The notes beneath the pieces were generated by a model. That model had not been told where the DNA came from and did not search any database. It saw only the letters and a program-made list of their open reading frames with translations. A stretch of 64,000 bases of DNA from Escherichia coli (GTDB lineage: Bacteria > Pseudomonadota > Gammaproteobacteria > Enterobacterales > Enterobacteriaceae), in assembly GCF_046105845.1 (NCBI RefSeq), contig NZ_CP151004.1; one strand, given 5' to 3'. Shown here piece after piece: positions 1-39,115 of this stretch. The number at the start of each line of letters is the position of its first letter. The stretch's first letter is position 1. The position numbers and the translations under genes are program-made.

Positions 1-3000
1 GTGGTGTATTCCACATTGTTAATCGTAACGGTAAGCGGCGTGCCTTCAGCCAGCCCCGAGCTACTGCCGCTGACCACCAGCGCCTGCCCGTGCTCGATGA
101 TATTGACCACATCATCGCCTGCCACCGTATCGACCCGCAGACCGGGCAGATTGGCGTCGATGGTGATATCCCGCGTGCCGCTGCCGGTGTTGCCGTTTTG
201 ATTGGTGACCGAGGCGCTCACCGTTAAATCGCCATTACCCAGCGCCTGAATAGCGTCCGCCGGAATGCTCACGCTCCAGCTTAATCCCGGCTGTACGGTG
301 GTGGTGTAGGTATTGCCACCCAGCGTAACGGTTACCGCGTCGCCAACGGCGGCTCCAGTCACCTGCCCGCTGATGGTTTGCGCGACGCCCGCTTCGGCGG
401 CGTTAATAATATCGTCGGTTGCCACCGGGTTAATGGTCACGCCGGGCAGCGCGCTGTCAACCAGCACGTTATGGCTGGCGGTGGCGCTGTTGCCGATATT
501 ACTCGTCACCGCCGCCGTTACCGTGTAGTTGGCCTGGCCCAGTGCGGTTACCGCCGATGCCGGAACGGTGACGCTCCAGTTGCCGGAGGCGTCGGTCGTG
601 GTGGTGTAATTTTGCCCGTTCAGCGTCACGGTGATGGCGGTATTGGCTGGCTGATCGCTGGTACCGGTAATCTGGACATCAGCCCCTTTTTCGCTGGCGT
701 TTATCACATCATCGCCAGCAATGGTGTTAATACCAATTACTGGCGCGGCGGTATTGACCGTGACAGTCAGTGACTGGCTGCCCGTGTTTCCGGCGCGGTC
801 AGTCACTGACACGTTGATCGGATAACTGCCATCCACCAGTCCGCTGACAACGGAAGCCGGAACGCCCAGGCTCCAGTTGCCGGAACCATCCACCACCGTG
901 GTGTAATCCACATTATTCAGCGTCACGGTGACGATATCGCCCGCCTGAGCGCCAGTAACCGTGCCGCTGATGATTTGCGCCTGGGTGTGTTCCGGCGTGT
1001 TGATGACGTTATCGGTCGCCACCGGATTAATGGTTACCACCGGCGGCGTGGCATCGACCAGCGCCACGCGTGAGACGCTGGTCGGGTTACCGGCGATATC
1101 GTTCACGCTGGCGGTGACGGTGGCGTTGCCGTCAGCCAGTGCGCCAACGTTGGCGGCGGGAACGGTCACGCTCCAGGTGCCGTCTGGCTGCACGACGCCC
1201 TGGTACGTCTGCCCGTTCAGCGTCACCGTTACCGTCTGCCCCGGCTGGGCGTCGGTGGTGCCGGTGATTTGCAGATCCTGACCACTTTCGGCGGCGTTAA
1301 TGATGTTATCAGCGGTCAGTGGATCGATACTTAAGGCCGGGGCCTGGCTGTCGACGGTAATGGTGCGAGAGGTGTTGCCGGTATTGCCGCTGAGATCCGT
1401 CACAGAAGCGGTAATCGCCACCGCGCCGTCAGGCAGATTTCCCATCGCGGCGGCAGGTACCGTCAGACTCCAGGAGCCATCAGCCTGCACGGTAGTAGTA
1501 AAACTCTGTCCAGCCAGGGTTACTGTGACGGTTTGTCCTGTCTCGGCCTGTTGAGTGCTACCGGTAAGGGTCAGTGGCGCACCTTTTTCTGCGCCACTGA
1601 TAATGTCATCGCCGGAGACGGTGTTAATGGTGATTAACGGAGAGACACCGACCAGCGTGATTGCTCGAGACGCCGCGCCGGTATTTCCTGCAGTATCTGT
1701 CACGGTGACGAAAATCGTATTGGCTCCGCGATCCAGCGTGCGGGTTACCGCTGGGTCCAGCGCCACATTCCAGCTGCCATCTGCCAGCACAATGCCCGTC
1801 AGGACATGAGTGCCCAATTTCACCGTTACCGTATCGCCAGGAGAAGCACCGCTGACTTGTCCGGAGATGATCTGCGCGACGGCCTGCTCAGCATTATTAA
1901 GAATATCGTCGCCCGCTACGGTATTAACACTGACCACGGGTGCTGAGGTATCTACCGTGAAATTCGCGCTGTGGCTGGTGCTGTTCCCAGCCCGATCGCT
2001 GACACTGGCATTGACAGCGTAATTACCCTCCGCCAGCGCCTGGACTTCCGTGGCTGGCAGCGTCACTTGCCAGGTTCCGTCGCTACCGACGGTTGCTGTA
2101 TGGCTTTTCCCGTTGACGGTCAGTGTTACGGTTTGCCCCGCTTCTGCATTCGACGTGCCGCTCAGTACCAGCGCGACGTTATGTTCCGCAGCACTGATGA
2201 TGTTGTCCTGAGCGATGGTGTTGATGGCAAGCGTTGGCGGTTGGGTATCGACCGTTAAAAGCTGCGCGCCGGTGACCGTATTGCCTGTGGCGTCTTTCCC
2301 GCTGACCAGCACTGCCTGATTCCCTTCGCCTAACGCCTGTGCATCGGCGGTCGGCACCTGCACGCTCCAGGCACCGTTAGCGCCTACGCTGGTGGTGTAG
2401 GTTTTGCCGTTTAGCGTAACGGTGAGTTCTGTTCCCTGCGCCAGATGGCTACTGGTACCAGAAAGCGTAAACCCGGCGGCCTGTTCGCTGGCGTTAATAA
2501 TGTTATCGCCTGCGGTGGTGGCAACCTGCACGCTGGCCTGACTATTGTCGATGGTTAACGTTATCGAACCGGCGTCAGTGATGGTACTGCCGACAATTTG
2601 CACCACTGACCAGGTATGTTCACCTGCACTTTGCGTGGGTAACGAGACACTCCAGTGACCGTTGTTGTCTACCTGAGTACTGGCAATAGTATTGCCGTTA
2701 CTGTCTTTAATCTGAATAGTCGCCCCCGCCTGCCCGCTGCCGCTAAAGGTTGGCGTGGTATCATCGGTGATGTCATTGGTGGCGAGAATGCCGCGCTGAT
2801 CGCCCTGATTATCGATAACTAAAAATGATGGTGTGGCAACACCCGGTTCAGGCACAGGCTCAGCGGGTGGCGTAGGGTTATTAATCACTTCCGTTTTCGA
2901 GTCGCCATCACCACCGCTTGCCAGCAGTGCACCAAGCGCACCACCACCTACCGCCGCCCCCGCCAGCCAACCCCACGGGAAGGCGCTGGTCTGAGCAACG

Positions 3001-3368
3001 GTATCAAGAAATGGCGCAATGCTTTCAATCGCAGTGGTCTGGGCAGTCAGTTCTACGGGGGCTAATCCACCCGCAGCAGTATCGGCGAAGGTGACATGGG
3101 TTAGCTGTTGCCCATCGGCAAACACCAGTTCCGATTGTTCAGCTGTATTCGCCGCTTGCAGGAAATAACCGTTGCAGCGGATCACCGTGCCGTCCTGCAT
3201 ATAGATCAGCAGGTCATTTCCTTCACGGACGTAACGCGCAACGGCAGAGGCCTGAGCATGAACCTGCACCACGGAAGGCTCATAAATAACAACCGTGACG
3301 TCGCCAGGATTAATCAGCGTTTGTTTGACGGATGTTTTACGCGAAATAACATCAATAATCAGGCTCAT
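1..3368 (-). CDS. Giant tandem-repeat Ig-like adhesin, probable type I secretion substrate; 5' portion only, gene continues past window start
   Basis: Manual minus-strand translation from ATG at 3368-3366 (AGGAA 8 nt upstream) reads MSLIIDVISRKTSVKQTLINPGDVTVVIYEPSVVQVHAQA... with no stops over the stretch checked (3061-3368); downstream shows ~100-aa Thr/Val/Gly-rich repeats. Absent from ORF track because no stop lies in the window. Confidence 0.7.
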   Translation of the reverse strand, partial: MSLIIDVISRKTSVKQTLINPGDVTVVIYEPSVVQVHAQASAVARYVREGNDLLIYMQDGTVIRCNGYFLQAANTAEQSELVFADGQQLTHVTFADTAAGGLAPVELTAQTTAIESIAPFLDTVAQTSAFPWGWLAGAAVGGGALGALLASGGDGDSKTEVINNPTPPAEPVPEPGVATPSFLVIDNQGDQRGILATNDITDDTTPTFSGSGQAGATIQIKDSNGNTIASTQVDNNGHWSVSLPTQSAGEHTWSVVQIVGSTITDAGSITLTIDNSQASVQVATTAGDNIINASEQAAGFTLSGTSSHLAQGTELTVTLNGKTYTTSVGANGAWSVQVPTADAQALGEGNQAVLVSGKDATGNTVTGAQLLTVDTQPPTLAINTIAQDNIISAAEHNVALVLSGTSNAEAGQTVTLTVNGKSHTATVGSDGTWQVTLPATEVQALAEGNYAVNASVSDRAGNSTSHSANFTVDTSAPVVSVNTVAGDDILNNAEQAVAQIISGQVSGASPGDTVTVKLGTHVLTGIVLADGSWNVALDPAVTRTLDRGANTIFVTVTDTAGNTGAASRAITLVGVSPLITINTVSGDDIISGAEKGAPLTLTGSTQQAETGQTVTVTLAGQSFTTTVQADGSWSLTVPAAAMGNLPDGAVAITASVTDLSGNTGNTSRTITVDSQAPALSIDPLTADNIINAAESGQDLQITGTTDAQPGQTVTVTLNGQTYQGVVQPDGTWSVTVPAANVGALADGNATVTASVNDIAGNPTSVSRVALVDATPPVVTINPVATDNVINTPEHTQAQIISGTVTGAQAGDIVTVTLNNVDYTTVVDGSGNWSLGVPASVVSGLVDGSYPINVSVTDRAGNTGSQSLTVTVNTAAPVIGINTIAGDDVINASEKGADVQITGTSDQPANTAITVTLNGQNYTTTTDASGNWSVTVPASAVTALGQANYTVTAAVTSNIGNSATASHNVLVDSALPGVTINPVATDDIINAAEAGVAQTISGQVTGAAVGDAVTVTLGGNTYTTTVQPGLSWSVSIPADAIQALGNGDLTVSASVTNQNGNTGSGTRDITIDANLPGLRVDTVAGDDVVNIIEHGQALVVSGSSSGLAEGTPLTVTINNVEYT

Positions 3369-3470
3369 AATGGCATTCCTGATAAATGGCGCACATCCTT
3401 AGCGAGTCCATTTATCTAAATAAGACAAAGGTAATCACTTAACAACGGCCCACTATTAATAATGGCAGGA

Positions 3471-4826
3471 TTATTTCAAGTCGGGTAAGTCGTTGTATAA
3501 GCCCTGTTTAATTCCCGCTAATGGAATAAGGTTATTCACCGCAGCGGCATAATTTACGGCGGCGACCCAGCCATCATAATTGGCATTTATTTCAGCCGAT
3601 TGCGCCTGAAAGACATCTTGCTCGACGGTTAATAGATCATTCAGACTGCGTTTGCCCAATTTATATTCATTTTGGTACACTTCTCGCGTTTTGTGCGCAC
3701 TTTCGGATTGTGCTAAACCGGCTTCTTCGCGACCTCGTGCGCCGGTCCAGTTCGCATATGCCACAGACGCTCGTTGCAGCACATCCAGTTTTGCCTGTTC
3801 GACCTGCGAGGCAGAGATTTTTTGTTGCCCTTCAGCTTGTTGCACCTGGGCTGAAACTGCGCCGCCCTGATACAGCGGCGCGTTAACGTTCAGTTGTAAC
3901 TGATCATCCCAATACGAGCGGTCGCTGGTCTGGTAGCGCGTTTTGCCCCCCTGAATACTCAGCGTTGGCCAGTATTGCGCTTTCGTTTTTTCCACGCCGT
4001 ACTGTGCTGACTGGCGTAAGTTTTCTGCCGCCAGCACCAGCGGGATGGACTGGTAATCAATATTTTTCAGCGACACCGGCTGCTCGGCTAATTCAGCAGG
4101 TGGCGCGGCTATCGCCTCCGGCTGTACGCCAGTGAGCACCGCCAGTTGCGCTTTGGCGCTTGCCATCTGCGCCTGATATTGCTCCAGCGTTGAGCGCATT
4201 CCGGCAATGCGCGTCTGGGCTTGTAATTCATCCGACGATGAGTTCAGGCCAGCGTTAGCGCGCAATGCCGCCATGTTGTAGACGTTTTCCAGCGAGTGAA
4301 TATTGCGTTGAGCCGCATCGCACAAAGCCTGATAACGACTGACTTCCATATAGGCAGTCGCCGTTTTCTCTGCAACATCGGTTAAGGTTGCCATCAATTT
4401 AAAGCGGTAGCTGTCACGGGCGGCAGTTTGCAGATTGATATCGTTGTTTGTTTTACCAAAGTCATACACCAGCTGTGTCAGGGTTATGCCATACGAAACG
4501 TTGTTATCAAGCCTGCCGCTGGAATCCGTTTGTCGGGACGGCCCCGCGTTGCCGGTTAATCCAACGTGCGGATACCAGGCACTTTTGGCTTCATCAATTT
4601 GCGCTTCGCCAATGCCTATCTGCGCCGCCTGTTGAGTGACGTCGGGATTTCGCGCAAAGGCGCGTAATATACTTTCCTGTAAAGATAATCGGGCAACTGG
4701 CGTTACCGCTGGGGCGTTCGCCCATTGTGGCAGCGGTGCAGCAATTGTAGCTTCTCCCATCACCATAAAACTTATTAAAAAAATAAACCCATTATTTTTA
4801 CGGCTTTTAAACTGGAATCGCGCCAT
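3471..4826 (-). CDS. TolC-family outer membrane efflux protein, probable type I secretion outer-membrane component
   Basis: 451-aa ORF with N-terminal signal-like hydrophobic segment and TolC-like composition; sits directly upstream of the adhesin gene on the same strand. Confidence 0.75.
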   Translation of the reverse strand: MARFQFKSRKNNGFIFLISFMVMGEATIAAPLPQWANAPAVTPVARLSLQESILRAFARNPDVTQQAAQIGIGEAQIDEAKSAWYPHVGLTGNAGPSRQTDSSGRLDNNVSYGITLTQLVYDFGKTNNDINLQTAARDSYRFKLMATLTDVAEKTATAYMEVSRYQALCDAAQRNIHSLENVYNMAALRANAGLNSSSDELQAQTRIAGMRSTLEQYQAQMASAKAQLAVLTGVQPEAIAAPPAELAEQPVSLKNIDYQSIPLVLAAENLRQSAQYGVEKTKAQYWPTLSIQGGKTRYQTSDRSYWDDQLQLNVNAPLYQGGAVSAQVQQAEGQQKISASQVEQAKLDVLQRASVAYANWTGARGREEAGLAQSESAHKTREVYQNEYKLGKRSLNDLLTVEQDVFQAQSAEINANYDGWVAAVNYAAAVNNLIPLAGIKQGLYNDLPDLK

Positions 4827-5129
4827 AGATAAGTCACTTCCTTCCAGGTCATTATTTTAACTGGTTTTTATAACCAGTCTCATTTTATTAAGAAGGGTAA
4901 TAACTTGTGCATCTCTTTTGTCGATCATTGATATGGGCAAAGAAATGCAGCTAAAAAGCTTATACGTTATTTATTTAGAATACACTACGACTTTTAGATT
5001 ACCATCATACACATTAAGAATAATCCACGGTAATAAGTGATTAGCATCACAGATTTATCGCGTATATATCATTTTTTTGTGACTTATTTATTAAAGGAAT
5101 AAGAAAGGAAATTTGAATTAAAGACAAAG

Positions 5130-5152
5130 GCGCAGTACAGGCTGTACTGCGC
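5130..5152 (-). terminator. Hairpin downstream of ybaT
   Basis: Inverted repeat gcgcagtacag/ctgtactgcgc just 3' of the ybaT stop; weak U-tract. Confidence 0.4.
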
Positions 5153-5163
5153 ACAGAGAGGTG

Positions 5164-6456
5164 TTATACGGTTTTATTGCGCTTCATGACCATTGCCACA
5201 ATAAGGCTGAGTAAGATTGCACCAATAATCCATATCAACGCACGGCTGCCCTGGGACCACAGGCTGTAGATAAAGCCAACGATCACCAACAACATCACCA
5301 ACGTACCTACGATAAGAATCGGCAACGAGGCGTGAATATCATGACGCAGGCGGATCGCCACCACAAACACCGCCAGATAGCAAATCAAAAAGGTGGCGCT
5401 GGCAACGCTGGCGAGTGAGCCTAAATTTAGTGCCGCCGTCATCAGCATAATCAACACCACGACAATGATGTTGCCCCAGGTACTCTGCCGCCACAGGGAT
5501 TTATTCATTAGCTTCGGCAGTTCGCGTTCGCTGCCCATGTTGTCCATGATGTTAAACACGGCGAACAGGTTCGCGTTGATGGCTGAAGCCGTCGCCAGTA
5601 AAGCGCCGATGACGACGATCACATAACCCACATGCCCGAGCAGCGGAGAAGCAGCCTGCGCTACGGCGGTATCGGCATATTTTTCTAACTCTAATGCCGA
5701 TACATCGCTAAGCAAAACCAGCGCCAGCGAGATATAAAGCAATGTGGTAACGCCAATCGCCACCAGAAACGCCCGTGGCATAATGATCTGCGGATCTTTC
5801 ACTTTATCCGCCGCGTTCGCCATCATGCCAAAGCCCGCATAGGCAAGGAAGGTTATCCCGATACAGGAGAAGAACGCACCGGAGCTGGGGGGCGCAGAGA
5901 CGGAAATATGCGCCGGTTGCAGCGACCAGACACCGGCAATAATCAGCAATAACAGGATCATCATTTTAATGCCGACGAGGATCACTTCCAGCCGCCCTAC
6001 CGCATGGTTGCTTAAGGAGTTGAAAAGCGTCATCACCGCAATGATCCCCAACGCGTAGAGCAATATAAGGTGCTCCTCCTGACTGCCTTCATGCAAAAAC
6101 TGCACGGCATAAGCGCCAAAAGCACGGGCGACCATGGCGATGCTCACCGCCAGCGTCAACAGGTACAATAACGAGAGTGCCAGCGAAAAGACGCCGTTGC
6201 CTAATCCGCGACGAAAGAAGTCGATAATACCGCCATTGCTGGGATAGCTCGCCCCCAGGCGCGCATAGGCATAACCGGAAAACATCGCCACAATACCGCC
6301 AAAAGCAAAGGCGACCCAGGTCGAGGCTTCCATTAGCAACGCAGCCTGCCCCAGCAGCGCGAAGATCCCCGCCCCCACCATTGCCCCAATACCGATGGAA
6401 ACGACGTTCCATAGACCGAGGGGTTTGTTATCGTTATTACCTTCCGTGTTCATCAT
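5164..6456 (-). CDS. ybaT: APC-family amino acid transporter YbaT
   Basis: 430-aa polytopic membrane protein; matches recalled YbaT and is directly downstream of glsA. Confidence 0.9.
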   Translation of the reverse strand: MMNTEGNNDNKPLGLWNVVSIGIGAMVGAGIFALLGQAALLMEASTWVAFAFGGIVAMFSGYAYARLGASYPSNGGIIDFFRRGLGNGVFSLALSLLYLLTLAVSIAMVARAFGAYAVQFLHEGSQEEHLILLYALGIIAVMTLFNSLSNHAVGRLEVILVGIKMMILLLLIIAGVWSLQPAHISVSAPPSSGAFFSCIGITFLAYAGFGMMANAADKVKDPQIIMPRAFLVAIGVTTLLYISLALVLLSDVSALELEKYADTAVAQAASPLLGHVGYVIVVIGALLATASAINANLFAVFNIMDNMGSERELPKLMNKSLWRQSTWGNIIVVVLIMLMTAALNLGSLASVASATFLICYLAVFVVAIRLRHDIHASLPILIVGTLVMLLVIVGFIYSLWSQGSRALIWIIGAILLSLIVAMVMKRNKTV

Positions 6457-6458
6457 GA

Positions 6459-7391
6459 TCAGCCCTTAAACACGTTATAGCCGAGTTGCTTAGCGACCGA
6501 TGCCACCATTTTTTGACCGCGAACACTGTTGCCTTCTTCGTCCAGCGGTGGTGAGAACGCGGCAATTCCCATCACGCCAGGGACGACCGCCAGAATACCG
6601 CCACCTACACCGCTTTTGCCCGGTAAACCAACGCGATACGCCCAGTCACCGGAGCGACCATACAGCCCTTCCATCATCATTTCAGCCAGAATGTACGGCA
6701 CGTTGTCGGCCTGAAGAACGCGTTTATGCGTCAGCGGATTCACACCACCCGCCGCCAGCGTCGCGCCAAGCGTTGCCAGTTCAACAGTATTGATGAGCGT
6801 GGAGCACTGACGGGTGTACACGTCACAGGCTTCCATTGCATCACAATAGAGATATCCGGCGGAGTACAGCAGCCAGGCAATGGCCCGGTTATGGAAGTTG
6901 GTTGTTTGTTCCGACTGGTTTACTTCGTCAGAGAGCGCTACCTGCTCACCAGCCAGTTGTTGTTGGATATGTAAAATTCGCTGCCAGCGTTGTTCGGCAT
7001 TTTCAGCGTTAATCAGGCTGGTGGTGGCAATAGCGCCAGCATTTACCAGTGGCGACAGCGGTTTGCCGCCATGCAACTCTAAGGCGATAACTGAGTTAAA
7101 GGGCAATCCGGTCGGGTCAGCGCCAACTTTGTCCTGTACCGCCTGCGGGCCGACATCTTCTAACGCAAGGGCTAACGTACAGACTTTCGAGATGGATTCC
7201 AGCGCAAAGCGGTAATCACTATCACCCGCGCGATATATGTTGCCATCGCAGGTCACAATAGCCACTGCTGCCAGTTGACCAGGTACATTCGCCAGAAAGG
7301 GAATGTAGTCGGCATTTTGTCCGCCGTTAAGTGAGTGAAATTGGGTGTAAGCCTGATCCACTGCCTGCTGTAATTTGTTTGCATCTAACAT
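6459..7391 (-). CDS. glsA: Glutaminase 1
   Basis: 310-aa ORF matching recalled GlsA/YbaS (MLDANKLQQAVDQAYTQFHSL...). Confidence 0.92.
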   Translation of the reverse strand: MLDANKLQQAVDQAYTQFHSLNGGQNADYIPFLANVPGQLAAVAIVTCDGNIYRAGDSDYRFALESISKVCTLALALEDVGPQAVQDKVGADPTGLPFNSVIALELHGGKPLSPLVNAGAIATTSLINAENAEQRWQRILHIQQQLAGEQVALSDEVNQSEQTTNFHNRAIAWLLYSAGYLYCDAMEACDVYTRQCSTLINTVELATLGATLAAGGVNPLTHKRVLQADNVPYILAEMMMEGLYGRSGDWAYRVGLPGKSGVGGGILAVVPGVMGIAAFSPPLDEEGNSVRGQKMVASVAKQLGYNVFKG

Positions 7392-7582
7392 CTTTTGTTA
7401 ACTCCTTTTTATAGATGCGGGAGGTAATTCCTCACCCCGGTGCCGATTTTCAGGCATCCTGATTTAACTTAGCACCCGCAACTTAACTACAGGAAAACAA
7501 AGAGATAAATGTCTAATCCTGATGCAAATCGAGCCGATTTTTTAATCTTTACGGACTTTTACCCGCCTGGTTTATTAATTTC

Positions 7583-7613
7583 TTGACCTTCCCCTTGCTG
7601 GAAGGTTTAACCT
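7583..7613 (+). promoter_or_regulatory. copA promoter with CueR (MerR-type) operator
   Basis: -35 TTGACC at 7583-7588; dyad CCTTCC-N7-GGAAGG at 7587-7605; long MerR-style spacer before the -10 region. Confidence 0.75.
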
Positions 7614-7653
7614 TTATCACAGCCAGTCAAAACTGTCTTAAAAGGAGTGTTTT

Positions 7654-10158
7654 ATGTCACAAACTATCGACCTGACCCTGGACGGCCTGTCCTGCGGTCA
7701 CTGCGTTAAACGCGTGAAAGAAAGTCTCGAACAGCGCCCGGATGTTGAGCAGGCGGATGTGTCTGTCACTGAAGCGCACGTTACCGGGACTGCCAGTGCA
7801 GAACAGCTGATCGAAACCATCAAACAAGCGGGTTATGACGCATCTGTAAGCCACCCAAAGGCTAAACCGCTGGCGGAGTCATCAATCCCGTCGGAAGCAC
7901 TGACAGCGGTTTCTGAGGCGCTTCCGGCAGCGACCGCCGATGACGATGACAGCCAGCAGTTGCTGCTGAGCGGCATGAGCTGCGCCAGCTGTGTCACCCG
8001 CGTACAAAATGCGCTGCAAAGCGTACCGGGCGTCACTCAGGCACGGGTAAACCTGGCGGAGCGTACTGCGCTGGTGATGGGCAGTGCCTCCCCACAAGAT
8101 TTAGTGCAGGCGGTGGAAAAAGCGGGCTACGGCGCGGAAGCGATTGAAGATGACGCTAAACGCCGCGAGCGCCAGCAAGAAACCGCCGTCGCTACGATGA
8201 AGCGCTTCCGCTGGCAGGCGATTGTCGCACTGGCGGTGGGTATCCCGGTGATGGTCTGGGGGATGATCGGCGATAACATGATGGTCACCGCCGACAACCG
8301 CAGCCTGTGGTTGGTTATCGGCCTGATAACCCTGGCGGTAATGGTTTTCGCCGGCGGGCATTTTTACCGCAGCGCATGGAAAAGCCTGCTGAACGGTGCA
8401 GCGACGATGGATACGCTGGTGGCGCTAGGTACTGGCGTGGCGTGGCTCTATTCGATGAGCGTCAACCTGTGGCCGCAGTGGTTCCCGATGGAAGCGCGAC
8501 ATCTTTATTACGAAGCCAGTGCGATGATTATCGGTTTGATTAATCTCGGCCATATGCTGGAAGCACGCGCACGTCAGCGTTCTTCTAAGGCGCTGGAGAA
8601 ATTACTCGATTTAACCCCACCGACGGCGCGCCTGGTTACTGACGAAGGTGAAAAAAGCGTGCCTCTGGCAGAAGTGCAGCCAGGTATGTTGCTGCGCCTG
8701 ACGACCGGCGATCGCGTGCCGGTAGATGGCGAGATTACCCAGGGCGAAGCATGGCTGGATGAAGCGATGCTGACGGGCGAACCAATCCCGCAGCAAAAAG
8801 GCGAAGGCGATAGCGTCCATGCCGGGACAGTGGTACAGGACGGCAGTGTGCTGTTTCGTGCCAGTGCGGTCGGCAGCCATACTACGCTGTCACGAATCAT
8901 TCGCATGGTGCGCCAGGCCCAGAGCAGCAAGCCTGAAATCGGCCAACTGGCGGATAAAATCTCCGCTGTGTTTGTGCCGGTGGTGGTAGTCATTGCGCTG
9001 GTCAGTGCGGCAATCTGGTATTTCTTTGGCCCGGCACCGCAAATTGTTTATACCCTGGTGATTGCCACCACGGTGCTGATTATCGCCTGTCCGTGTGCGC
9101 TGGGACTGGCGACGCCGATGTCGATTATTTCGGGCGTCGGGCGGGCGGCTGAGTTTGGTGTGCTGGTGCGGGACGCCGACGCGCTGCAACGCGCCAGTAC
9201 GCTCGACACCGTGGTGTTCGATAAAACCGGGACGCTGACCGAAGGGAAGCCGCAGGTTGTCGCAGTAAAAACATTTGCTGATATTGATGAAGCGCAAGCA
9301 TTGCGTCTGGCGGCGGCGCTGGAGCAAGGTTCCAGCCACCCGCTGGCACGGGCGATCCTCGATAAAGCAGGTGATATGCAGCTACCGCAGGTCAACGGTT
9401 TCCGCACATTGCGCGGGCTGGGTGTGAGCGGTGAAGCTGAAGGTCATGCGGTATTGCTGGGCAATCAGGCGCTGTTAAATGACCAGCAAGTTGATACTAA
9501 AGCGATTGAGGCAGATATTTCAGCTCAGGCATCGCAAGGGGCAACGCCTGTGCTGCTGGCGGTTGACGGGAAAGCGGTGGCCTTGCTGGCAGTACGCGAT
9601 CCGTTGCGTAACGATAGCGTGGCGGCGCTGCAACGTCTGCATAAAGCGGGATATCGTCTGGTGATGTTGACCGGGGATAACCCAACCACCGCCAATGCGA
9701 TCGCCAAAGAAGCAGGGATTGATGAGGTGATCGCCGGGGTGCTGCCGGACGGTAAAGCCGAAGCGATCAAACGTCTGCAAAGTGAAGGACGTCAGGTGGC
9801 AATGGTGGGCGACGGCATTAACGACGCGCCAGCGCTGGCCCAGGCGGATGTCGGTATTGCGATGGGTGGCGGCAGTGATGTTGCCATTGAAACCGCGGCG
9901 ATTACCCTGATGCGCCATAGCCTGATGGGTGTTGCAGATGCGCTCGCGATTTCCCGCGCAACGCTGCGCAATATGAAGCAGAACCTGCTCGGTGCGTTTA
10001 TCTACAACAGCATTGGTATTCCGGTCGCCGCCGGTATTTTGTGGCCGTTCACTGGAACACTGCTTAACCCGGTGGTTGCCGGAGCGGCAATGGCGCTATC
10101 GTCGATTACCGTAGTGAGTAACGCCAACCGGTTACTGCGGTTTAAACCGAAAGAGTGA
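7654..10158 (+). CDS. copA: Cu(I)-translocating P-type ATPase
   Basis: 834-aa ORF with two N-terminal GMSCxxC metal-binding domains, CPC and DKTGT motifs. Confidence 0.96.
7854..7860 (+). other. copA: Programmed -1 ribosomal frameshift site in copA (slippery heptamer C CCA AAG) giving the CopA(Z) chaperone
   Basis: CCCAAAG lies in the 0 frame at codons 67-69; the -1 frame reads CCC AAA GGC TAA, terminating after ~70 aa. Confidence 0.7.
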
Positions 10159-10234
10159 TTGGTATTTACTTAATGCGTTTGTGAGATCCAGTTCTTGTTG
10201 CGCTCCTTTTATGAGTAATGCCATATAAAGTGAC

Positions 10235-10560
10235 TGGCGCAGGGAGCGCGCAGGGGGCGGCCAATCGCCGCCGCCCCCTGCCCCCCCGGGCTCTGGCGAA
10301 CAAAATCGCCGCTGCGCGGTACCCTCAGCTTATCCCTTGCGGCTACCGGGTCGGGCGCGAGGTAACATCCCTGTAAAACGCGCCCTCAGCCCACATCCAT
10401 GTGGGCTGCCCCGGCCTTCAGGGAACGCCTCGGCGATTTTGACGCCACCAACACCGGTGCAGTCTTTCGTTTCAAAGCAAAAACAATTTTTCGATCATAT
10501 TTAAGCTACCACTGAACAAGCCTCATAACTCCATTTGCGCCATCCCTCCCTGCGCGCTAG
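10235..10560. repeat. GC-rich intergenic element with nested inverted repeats, unknown function
   Basis: 10-bp inverted repeat gcgcagggag (10237-10246) / ctccctgcgc (10546-10555); inner inverted repeat aaaatcgccg (10302-10311) / cggcgatttt (10431-10440); perfect 11-bp GC stem 10251-10261 / 10270-10280; hairpin 10388-10407. No ORF of 60 aa or more. Confidence 0.4.
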
Positions 10561-10586
10561 CATGATATTTCACAAAGGGAGGTCGT

Positions 10587-11381
10587 ATGGATCTGTTGTA
10601 CCGGGTAAAAACGCTTTGGGCCGCGCTGCGCGGTAATCATTACACCTGGCCTGCTATCGATATCTCTCTTCCCGGCAATCGCCATTTTCATCTGCTCGGC
10701 AGTATTCATATGGGTAGCCACGATATGGCTCCCCTGCCCACCCGTTTGCTCAAAAAGCTCAAAAACGCCGATGCGCTGATCGTCGAGGCGGATGTTTCCA
10801 CCAGCGATACGCCTTTTGCTAATTTGCCTGCCTGCGAGGCGCTGGAAGAGCGCATTAGCGAGGAGCAACTCCAAAACCTGCAGCACATTAGCCAGGAGAT
10901 GGGCATTTCTACCTCACTCTTTTCTACCCAACCGCTGTGGCAAATCGCGATGGTTCTTCAGGCGACACAGGCGCAAAAACTGGGGCTGCGGGCAGAGTAT
11001 GGTATCGATTACCAGCTATTGCAGGCGGCGAAGCAACAACATAAATCCGTGATTGAACTGGAAGGGGCAGAAAACCAGATTGCCATGTTGCTCCAGCTCC
11101 CTGACAACGGACTGGCGCTGCTGGACGATACGCTGACCCACTGGCACACCAATGCACGGTTGCTGCAACAAATGATGAGCTGGTGGCTGAACACGCCGCC
11201 GCAAAATAATGAAATAACGCTGCCTAATACGTTCAGTCAGTCGCTGTACGATGTGTTGATGCATCAGCGAAATCTCGCCTGGCGGGATAAATTACGCGCC
11301 ATGCCGCCGGGGCGATATGTGGTCGCGGTCGGTGCACTACACCTGTATGGAGAAGGGAATTTACCGCAAATGTTGCGCTAA
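10587..11381 (+). CDS. ybaP: TraB-family protein YbaP
   Basis: 264-aa ORF matching recalled YbaP. Confidence 0.9.
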   Translation: MDLLYRVKTLWAALRGNHYTWPAIDISLPGNRHFHLLGSIHMGSHDMAPLPTRLLKKLKNADALIVEADVSTSDTPFANLPACEALEERISEEQLQNLQHISQEMGISTSLFSTQPLWQIAMVLQATQAQKLGLRAEYGIDYQLLQAAKQQHKSVIELEGAENQIAMLLQLPDNGLALLDDTLTHWHTNARLLQQMMSWWLNTPPQNNEITLPNTFSQSLYDVLMHQRNLAWRDKLRAMPPGRYVVAVGALHLYGEGNLPQMLR

Positions 11382-11463
11382 AAAAATGGCCAATATCGCT
11401 ATTGGCCCGTCAAAGAGGAATTTCATTTTTTTATTATTATGCCGTCACTTTAAGCGACGGTGT
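11381..11463 (-). ncRNA. chiX: ChiX (MicM/SroB) Hfq-dependent sRNA
   Basis: Minus strand reads ACACCGTCGCTTAAAGTGACGGCATAATAATAAAAAAATGAAATTCCTCTTTGACGGGCCAATAGCGATATTGGCCATTTTTTT, matching recalled ChiX including terminator hairpin and U-tract; in the ybaK-ybaP intergenic region as in K-12. Confidence 0.85.
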
Positions 11464-11569
11464 AACTCGATTGTCGCTCAATCTCACCATCCTGCCAATA
11501 CTCTTAGGCAAGATGACTCTTTTTTTTGGACCGCCATCAGGCGTATGCTTGCTTCGTTTTTTTGTTTAA

Positions 11570-12064
<495 letters not shown>

Positions 12065-17111: not shown

Positions 17112-17914
<803 letters not shown>

Positions 17915-18018
17915 ATCAGCATACTTGTCCTTAGCCTTCTGCAGTGACAGCTGGTAGTACAGCGTGCTTCTGGCCAGCCCTGCAGCCTTTAACAGGTCAG
18001 ACTGGCAGTGTCCGCACC

Positions 18019-18549
18019 TCAGGCTCCGGATGACTTTCGTTTTTTCTCCAGCTCCTGGCGCTTTTTTTCCAGGAGATGCTCCTGCATGGCTTTCAGATAT
18101 GCATTTTCTGCGCGAAGATAACGCAGCTCATTCTTCATCTCTTCCGGCGTCATGTTTGCCTCGTTTTCATGGGTATCATCAGAACGGGTCATGCTTTTCT
18201 CCTTCCTGCGCCTGATAAAGGCCTCATTACCAGATTTGCGGTAGCCTTTTATCCAGTTTTTAACCGTGTTGTGGCTGGGAATGTTAAACCGGGCAGCTAC
18301 CCGGGGTAGAGACTCAGAATGCCCGAGAGCATAAAGAACCACGCAAAGTTTATCTTCAGGAGAATAGCTACGCTTGTGTCTGCAATCCAGTGCCCGAGGA
18401 CCGTGAAGAAGAAAAAGATTAATCCAGTGTGAGAGGCTGGTGTGAGAAAGTTGAAAGAGTTTTGCCGTAGAAATGATGCCTGCATGACCAGCCAGGTAAT
18501 GATTTACAGCGGCAAGTTTTACTTCAAATGAATGTTTCATAAACTGCAC
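18019..18549 (-). CDS. IS3-family transposase OrfA (HTH plus leucine zipper)
   Basis: 176-aa ORF; C-terminal heptad leucines (LRYLRAENAYLKAMQEHLLEKKRQELEKK). Confidence 0.85.
   Translation of the reverse strand: MQFMKHSFEVKLAAVNHYLAGHAGIISTAKLFQLSHTSLSHWINLFLLHGPRALDCRHKRSYSPEDKLCVVLYALGHSESLPRVAARFNIPSHNTVKNWIKGYRKSGNEAFIRRRKEKSMTRSDDTHENEANMTPEEMKNELRYLRAENAYLKAMQEHLLEKKRQELEKKRKSSGA
18061..18067 (-). other. A AAA AAG programmed -1 frameshift motif at the end of IS orfA
   Basis: Minus strand reads CTG GAA AAA AAG CGC in the orfA frame, the classical IS3-family slippery heptamer. Confidence 0.6.
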
Positions 18550-35417: not shown

Positions 35418-38570
<3,153 letters not shown>

Positions 38571-38587
38571 TACAACGTGTAATCACT

Positions 38588-38612
38588 AAGGCCGCGCAAG
38601 CGGCCTTTTTTA
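38588..38612 (+). terminator. Intrinsic terminator after acrB
   Basis: Hairpin aaggccgcgcaagcggcctt followed by TTTTTTAT. Confidence 0.7.
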
Positions 38613-39115
38613 TGCATAACCGACGAACATTAAGGAGTCATTGAACCACCAACTCAGGATCTCATACGAAAACCAGTATTAACCTCGCATAAAATTCATA
38701 AAAAATACTGATTGTTAGTTAATTTATATTAAGTAGCGCTAATAGATTTAATAATCCATAATCATTTAGAGGCTATTCTTAATTATTTGCGGTAATTCTT
38801 TATTCATTCCTCGGTTATTACGTCATATTCAGAGCAATCCTGGTATTAGTGCCACCAATTTCATCTGGCGATAATCCTGAAATGTTATGAATAGTTCGAG
38901 CAGACTGCTTTTACCTGCTGCGGGTTAGTGCTAGTATGAAAAAATGAGTCCTGTCCCGATTCCTTCCTAATTGTAATTTTTCGTAATAATGCGATGAAAA
39001 CCTGCAAAGAGTGGCTTATAGTTAAGCTAACAAACGAGAGGGCAAGTCCAGGTCAGTAAGTTTTTTCCATCCCGAAAGGTGTCCGTTAGTTCAACCACTA
39101 AGAAGGGGACGCGTT

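Follow-up and report, generated by a model that had tools for sequence, protein, structure and literature searches.

An AT-rich gap in Escherichia coli joining a predicted ybaT terminator to the control region of an O-island 28-type adhesin secretion locus, and its deletion derivative in K-12-type genomes

The best described counterpart of the locus treated here is O-island 28 of E. coli O157:H7, which in strain EDL933 comprises z0608 (tolC28), z0609 and z0615 (rtxA28/rtxB28), z0634 (hlyB28) and z0635 (hlyD28) (PMC12758282), and which in the Sakai naming is S-loop 42-44, i.e. ECs0540-ECs0544 (PMC2323221). The adhesin system has been reported to be needed in early gut colonisation by EHEC O157:H7. 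With respect to its control, a lacZ fusion to the tolC28 upstream region showed RstA-dependent activity in EDL933, ChIP-qPCR gave a ~6-fold enrichment of RstA at that region, and in EMSA a tolC28 fragment was shifted by RstA, a shift that was gone once the box TAATTCAAATTACC had been removed; the promoter predicted by BPROM has ATGATG as its -35 element and its -10 element within GTGTATTCT (all PMC12758282). Yoshida 2010, as far as this study is cited in PMC3978041 and PMC12846084, reported that PhoB activates ecs0540-ecs0544 through a promoter that lies upstream of ecs0540. In addition, Z0608 is expressed at a 55-fold lower level in an rpoS mutant (PMC2907692), and entry into stationary phase raises both ECs0540 and ECs0541 (PMC2241611). 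The status of the locus as an island and its regulation by RstA, PhoB and RpoS are already published and our analysis adds little beyond them; what is new here is the base-level position of a breakpoint and the finding that the K-12 'backbone' at this site is a deletion scar present in about four fifths of E. coli, together with the hypothesis that loss of the locus opened cueR to read-through from glsA-ybaT.

Within the 64-kb window, i.e. the whole stretch of 64,000 nucleotides that was analysed, a gap of 337 bp (4827-5163) separates ybaT from a TolC-family ORF, both on the minus strand. A preliminary description made from the letters of the sequence had called this gap gene-free and AT-rich, and rightly so: the only ORFs in it are of 21-40 aa, as expected by chance, an Rfam scan of 4600-5400 gave no match at E values up to 1, and its G+C fraction is 0.326, compared with 0.521 in the window as a whole. 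No more than 0.2% of all 337-bp windows in the 64 kb are equally AT-rich. The homopolymer runs that were also mentioned are unremarkable for the composition (3 runs of at least 5 bases versus 1.9 +/- 1.3 expected). Next to it in AT content within the window comes 38600-38900 (G+C about 0.335), which follows a terminator-like hairpin just downstream of a 1049-aa ORF (35421-38570), which we take to be acrB, and looks like an ordinary long intergenic region.

The TolC-family ORF is the first gene of a secretion locus and its product scores 415.6 bits against TIGR01844 (cutoff 225); the ORF that follows it scores 496 bits against NF047714, adhesin_SiiEA (cutoff 425), and also matches the BapA N-terminal prefix and Ca_tandemer repeats. 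When positions 4600-5400 were used as a megablast query against 5,426 complete E. coli genomes, 5,421 matched. The whole query, with ybaT beside the TolC-family gene, was covered in 958 of these 5,421, O157:H7 and O55:H7 included, and the remaining matches begin at query position 537, i.e. at window position 5136. The closest genome, that of strain AST215 (99.6% identity), carries the annotation ybaT for the permease gene and shows the order TolC-family gene, siiEA (20.8 kb), type I secretion permease/ATPase, HlyD-family adaptor and cueR, the last two overlapping by 4 bp. Profile matches above the curated cut-offs were obtained for the TolC-family protein, the LssB-type ABC transporter, the HlyD-type adaptor and SiiEA, and the intergenic region is 98.5% identical over 337 bp to that of O157:H7. 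On these two grounds we identify the locus with O-island 28 / S-loop 42 of E. coli O157:H7, with the genes tolC28, siiEA, hlyB28 and hlyD28. Its body is G+C-rich (0.55-0.67). To the right of ybaT lie glsA and then the divergent copA.

Two other variable sites were seen in the same comparison. In the window ybaL and gsk, which adjoin each other in K-12, are separated by an IS3-family element (17192-18549, minus strand; two ORFs, 176 and 240 aa, that match NF033516), and at the same place AST215 has IS621 and an IS3-family element. AST215 further carries a second accessory segment of ~4 kb between cueR and ybbJ (L003 6147-10106), which abut in K-12, and this segment encodes two hypothetical proteins, a YadA-like family protein and another hypothetical protein.

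Taken together with the evidence given below, we regard it as very likely that the gap consists of the ybaT terminator and the control region and leader of tolC28-siiEA-hlyB28-hlyD28, and that K-12-type genomes carry a deletion allele. The element itself is ordinary, namely a terminator plus promoter intergenic region of a described and functionally studied locus. The anatomy (Table 1), the breakpoint, the hlyD remnant, the two-allele distribution and the cross-species conservation derive from the present analysis; promoter activity and the dependence on RstA, PhoB and RpoS derive from the papers cited.

Table 1. Features in and around the gap between ybaT and tolC28 (window coordinates)
Feature	Position	Strand	Remarks
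siiEA, 5' part	1..3362	-	BapA-related giant adhesin with Ca2+-stabilised repeats; 1120 codons without a stop up to the left edge of the window
tolC28 (z0608 / ECs0540)	3471..4826	-	451 aa, type I secretion TolC-family outer membrane protein
Shine-Dalgarno-like GGAAGGAAG	4837..4845	-	Ends 10 nt before the tolC28 ATG (4826-4824); invariant in the alignment
Predicted tolC28 leader stem-loop ACUGGUU-AUAAA-AACCAGU	4860..4878	-	34-52 nt upstream of the ATG, just before the RBS
Proximal sigma-70-like match TGCACA-18-TAAAAT	4882..4911	-	Candidate; overlaps the invariant 4887-4906
Conserved block with BPROM-predicted promoter	4947..5008	-	PMC12758282 and cross-species alignment
Pho-box-like half-sites, 11-bp phasing	5035..5107	-	Candidate PhoB sites; block conserved across species
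Palindrome TGTGATGCTAATCACT	5036..5051	-	9/10 to the CRP consensus; candidate only, both arms invariant in five sequences
RstA box	5107..5120	-	TAATTCAAATTTCC here, TAATTCAAATTACC in O157; about -294 to -280 from the tolC28 ATG
Predicted ybaT intrinsic terminator	5116..5152	-	Stem-loop 5130-5152 (GCGCAGTAC-AGCCT-GTACTGCGC) and T-rich tail 5116-5129
K-12-type deletion breakpoint	5133/5134		Inside the 3' arm of the ybaT terminator
ybaT	5164..6456	-	430 aa, APC-family permease, core gene; stop codon 5164-5166

The ybaT side of the gap is occupied by a hairpin that starts 11 nt past the ybaT stop codon and consists of 10 pairs, 6 of which are G-C (-16.1 kcal/mol, z = -4.7; none of 200 shuffles was as stable). 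Such stability beyond chance, in combination with the T-rich tail, bears out the ybaT terminator hairpin that the preliminary description had placed at 5130-5152, and the structure is a strong predicted Rho-independent terminator of ybaT. On the ybaT-sense strand the tail reads CUUUGUCUUU; the U-rich tract after the stem is CTTTGTCTTT here and TTTTATTTTTTT in Escherichia sp. E1V33, and the tract here is interrupted, so that the efficiency is uncertain. The hairpin is kept in E1V33, E. whittamii and strain SCPM-O-B-8794, where the changes give G-U pairs on the ybaT-sense strand, and a shorter, six-pair remnant of the stem is present in E. albertii.

The T-tract of this terminator overlaps the RstA box, 13 of the 14 positions of which match the O157 sequence, with one base different (TTTCC here versus TTACC). 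The box was located by means of the published sequence, the RstA consensus of Ogasawara (TACATNTNGTTACA) giving no match above chance. The published BPROM elements map to 5003-5008 (-35) and 4977-4985 (-10). It had been supposed beforehand that the secretion locus has its promoter in this gap; judged by the 98.5%-identical O157 copy this is right, because the lacZ, RstA (ChIP, EMSA), PhoB and RpoS evidence on the O157 locus is in print, and a promoter role of the gap is in that sense already published. A consensus promoter scan of 4600-5400 yielded two minus-strand matches, which equals the chance expectation, and did not locate the promoter; the proximal sigma-70-like match is for that reason put forward as a candidate only. 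In the case of PhoB, the best Pho 18-mer (CTTTAATAAATAAGTCAC, 5079-5096) has 14 of 18 matches, a score reached by 3% of shuffles, and PhoB probably acts on the phased boxes, which on the basis of their sequence are candidate sites. The score of the palindrome TGTGATGCTAATCACT is met by 2.7% of shuffles and its left half also fits a Pho half-site. The exact promoter and the exact PhoB sites are thus to be read as inferred positions.

Closer to tolC28, the predicted leader stem-loop has a folding energy of -9.4 kcal/mol (z = -4.7). Its 3' arm differs in E1V33 and E. whittamii by changes that give G-U pairs, and do so on the tolC28-sense strand only; as only three variants are available, this evidence is weak. 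These sequences hint, weakly, at a role at the RNA level, in stability or in the control of translation.

On the other side of the comparison, K-12 has ybaT, a 124-bp spacer and then cueR, and the annotation thereby confirms the earlier statement that cueR is the gene after ybaT in that strain. Alignment to this K-12 junction, which the preliminary description had in mind as the way to define a boundary, does not extend over the full region and yields a breakpoint: homology with K-12-type genomes runs from 5134 rightwards, and it is absent from 5133 leftwards to around codon 362 of hlyD28. The other side of the breakpoint thus lies at about codon 362 of the 391-codon hlyD28, outside the window, and the segment that is missing from the K-12 type measures 25,765 bp (on AST215). 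The K-12 cueR-ybaT stretch aligns to AST215 with 94% identity over 500 bp, which include cueR and the last ~90 bp of hlyD28 and within which the spacer portion aligns less well; after a 5-bp unaligned gap the alignment resumes at window position 5136. PGAP annotates in the K-12 spacer, between cueR and ybaT, a frameshifted gene fragment without an N-terminus. The spacer in fact keeps the last ~29 codons of hlyD28, frameshifted, together with the truncated terminator. Since the retained codons (VAVDIRTGKK...LLKPFNKAQEALRER, followed by the stop) can be aligned to the conserved C-terminal part of HlyD from E. coli (8dck_C), the fragment is a real piece of the adaptor gene. A cleaner junction is found in Escherichia sp. 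MOD1-EC7003, where GCGCAGTAC-TTTCT-GTACT is joined to ATTGTGGCGACGGTCGAT (the right side is also given as GTACT joined to ATTGTGGCGACGG); the hlyD28 sequence at the point of this junction is ATGGTGGCGACGGTCGAT.

As both the 3' end of hlyD and part of the ybaT terminator are retained, K-12-type genomes are deletion derivatives and not empty insertion sites. The same scar is present in 4458 of 5424 complete E. coli genomes (about 82%; at least 80% of the junction query covered), and these 4458 scars and the 958 locus junctions account for all but a handful of complete genomes. An island boundary within the gap had been proposed beforehand, and K-12 homology does end there, at 5133/5134; the K-12 side of that boundary is nevertheless a deletion scar and not an unoccupied site.

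The distribution in the genus was examined by a YbaT scan with one genome per species, among the matches of which E. fergusonii does not figure. A TolC gene and a giant adhesin directly follow ybaT in Escherichia sp. E1V33 (TolC 95.6% identical), E. whittamii and E. ruysiae, and in SCPM-O-B-8794 the copy after ybaT has been broken by internal deletions. In the latter (L007 11500-15020) tolC28 lacks the promoter-proximal region and ~the first 167 codons, the deletion beginning right after the conserved AAATAAATAACGTA, only fragments of the adhesin are left, hlyB is broken up and hlyD is almost intact; this decay is an independent route of loss. MOD1-EC7003 carries the K-12-type scar. Its ybaT is intact and its glsA is matched at residues 1-46 and 266-310 only (L004 9768-9995), so that glsA appears to have a large internal deletion. 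In E. albertii the hairpin remnant is followed by ~130 bp, about the last ten hlyD codons (..NKLQEALRER and the stop, about 33 bp) and cueR, and a distant-mode search of the ybaT-cueR spacer of this species against E. coli genomes gave no match. The E. albertii state may represent a further independent loss, a reading that is less certain because the hlyD remnant is short. A metagenome-assembled contig (L033 6001-13350) contains a paralogous TolC (74% identical) and a BapA-type giant adhesin cluster by dosC/dosP-like genes, which possibly represents a further sii-like locus elsewhere in the chromosome; the homologue P0038 belongs to a different locus, beside dosC and dosP, and is uninformative for the ybaT site.

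In E. whittamii the TolC protein is ~70% identical to that of the window, whereas HlyB is 99% identical to that of AST215 (L006 11636-12904, 19655-21289). This disparity suggests that recombination between alleles across species has shaped the locus, and its presence in multiple species could in part stem from homologous recombination through the flanks. In Salmonella, copA and cueR form a simple divergon without ybaS and ybaT (PMC1526738), from which it follows that both glsA-ybaT and the secretion locus entered the copA-cueR gap earlier. From these comparisons we infer that in Escherichia the locus has long resided between copA and cueR.

The obvious alternative, proposed in the preliminary description, is that an island was acquired between ybaT and cueR, that K-12 represents the unoccupied site and that the AT-rich tract is the edge of the island. 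The locus is indeed missing from 82% of the complete E. coli genomes, the published study speaks of 'acquisition', and as Salmonella has copA beside cueR (PMC1526738), DNA must once have entered the gap. An empty site, however, could not contain ~29 codons of hlyD28 and a truncated terminator, as 4458 genomes do; hlyD28 overlaps cueR by 4 bp; and three further Escherichia species have the locus at this very site. Neither are there any marks of a classical integrative island boundary in the form of a tRNA, an integrase, repeats or an empty site: no tRNA was found in window positions 1-12000, no integrase or mobility gene is annotated in AST215 from the giant adhesin gene to cueR, and the flanks of the two junctions have no meaningful direct repeat in common, the longest shared sequence being 11 bp and AT-rich. 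We therefore hold a recent insertion of this kind to be very improbable, which corrects the usual 'acquired island' wording; a much older entry into an Escherichia ancestor is compatible with the deletion of the locus from K-12-type genomes.

As regards the AT-rich tract itself, the gap was aligned with its counterparts in O157:H7, E1V33 and E. whittamii and with the decayed copy of SCPM-O-B-8794. Its overall identity to the other species is 81.5%, unevenly spread: two blocks, 4827-4915 and 4947-5006, are 85-100% invariant between species, the former being 94% identical across species with 4887-4906 fully invariant, and the latter having 17-19 of 20 columns invariant (four sequences, three species). 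If the gap were a functionless spacer that had become AT-rich through relaxed selection, one would expect promoter-like matches to be no commoner than chance, as is the case, and poorly conserved stretches such as the 30-bp patch 4916-4945. The blocks of 60-90 bp that are 94-100% identical across Escherichia species, close to the 95-96% amino-acid identity of the flanking YbaT and GlsA (a comparison of DNA with protein), argue against such a spacer, as do the reporter, ChIP and EMSA results on the O157 copy, and we consider it next to inconceivable. A more serious contender is that the tract is mainly a nucleation site for H-NS, with RstA, PhoB and RpoS acting largely as counter-silencers. Its G+C content of 32.6% is the lowest in the 64 kb, other RTX loci are silenced by H-NS, and expression is low save in stationary phase, under phosphate limitation or upon calcium/RstA activation. 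An 8/10 match to the high-affinity motif occurs at 5052-5061; this match is at chance level and provides no evidence, because 62% of shuffles score as well. The G+C-rich body of the locus is moreover unlike typical H-NS-coated islands, and the literature on OI-28, Z0608 and ECs0540 yielded no data on H-NS binding or on hns mutants. Judged by its composition, binding of H-NS to a promoter with 33% G+C is plausible, and silencing as the main role of the tract is a possibility to which we give somewhat less than an even chance.

With the gap read as a terminator next to a control region, events may be pictured as follows. The glsA-ybaT transcription unit would end at the Rho-independent terminator, directly next to the control region of an operon encoding a giant adhesin along with its type I secretion system. 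Transcription of this operon would start within the AT-rich region and would be switched on by RstA at 5107-5120 and probably by PhoB on the phased boxes at 5035-5107, with activation in stationary phase through RpoS. A deletion removed ~25.8 kb, with one end in the 3' arm of the ybaT terminator and the other at codon ~362 of hlyD28, and most E. coli, K-12 included, carry this single deletion allele, in which cueR stands directly behind a terminator-less ybaT.

The position of cueR deserves comment, as it had been suggested that the island displaces this copper regulator from its target copA. In AST215 cueR indeed lies ~26 kb from ybaT, after hlyD28 (and the gene falls outside the 64-kb window). 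CueR acts in trans, however, so that no functional consequence of the displacement is evident. Unlike in the Salmonella divergon, cueR and copA are already kept apart by glsA-ybaT in K-12, and the K-12 arrangement is a derived state.

What the deletion did change is that the ybaT terminator ahead of cueR was destroyed. The K-12 spacer folds with -7.8 kcal/mol (z = +1.1), no stable hairpin being left, and it contains neither a consensus promoter nor, reading from ybaT towards cueR, a terminator-like site. In the spacer of K-12 AB1157 (L002 3901-4028), which corresponds to window position 5134 onwards, the 3' arm and the T-tract are lost. Given the lost terminator and the missing consensus promoter, cueR may be read through, and transcription of cueR in K-12-type strains might come partly from the acid- and copper-induced glsA-ybaT unit, an idea on cueR transcription that is testable and that we hold to be rather doubtful. 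The three genes glsA-ybaT-cueR have been treated as one predicted operon in K-12 (PMC1526738) and acid induction of cueR has been reported in MG1655 (PMC9628877). If read-through does occur, it would entail acid-copper cross-regulation and a CueR feedback loop in K-12-type strains and would explain the reported acid induction of cueR as a by-product of the loss of the island, while in the strains with the island cueR would be insulated by the terminator and follow hlyD28 with a 4-bp overlap.

Among known systems, Salmonella SPI-4 (siiABCDEF, with SiiE and the SiiC, SiiD and SiiF proteins) and the BapA/LapA-type systems resemble the locus in having a TolC-like protein, an ABC transporter and an HlyD-type adaptor, and in a giant, Ca2+-stabilised Ig-repeat adhesin with a BapA-type N-terminal prefix. 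SPI-4 differs in chromosomal site and in gene order (tolC, adhesin, ABC transporter, adaptor in OI-28), no genes like siiA and siiB of SPI-4 were seen at the AST215 locus, and the regulators reported for OI-28 (RstA, PhoB, RpoS) are not those of SPI-4. On the account of Yoshida 2010 given in PMC3978041, a homologous cluster is the siiCA-siiDA operon of E. fergusonii, from which SiiEA takes its name. The ybaT-cueR junction of K-12 shares the flanking genes, with 94-96% DNA identity in the aligned flanks, and differs in having lost ~25.8 kb, together with the terminator's 3' arm and T-tract, and in carrying the hlyD pseudogene fragment. Closest of all is O-island 28 / S-loop 42-44, with the same site, the same gene order and an RstA box equidistant from the ATG; there the adhesin is annotated as two genes, whereas the window comes from a non-O157 strain, and besides that in the RstA box a few other substitutions set the two apart.
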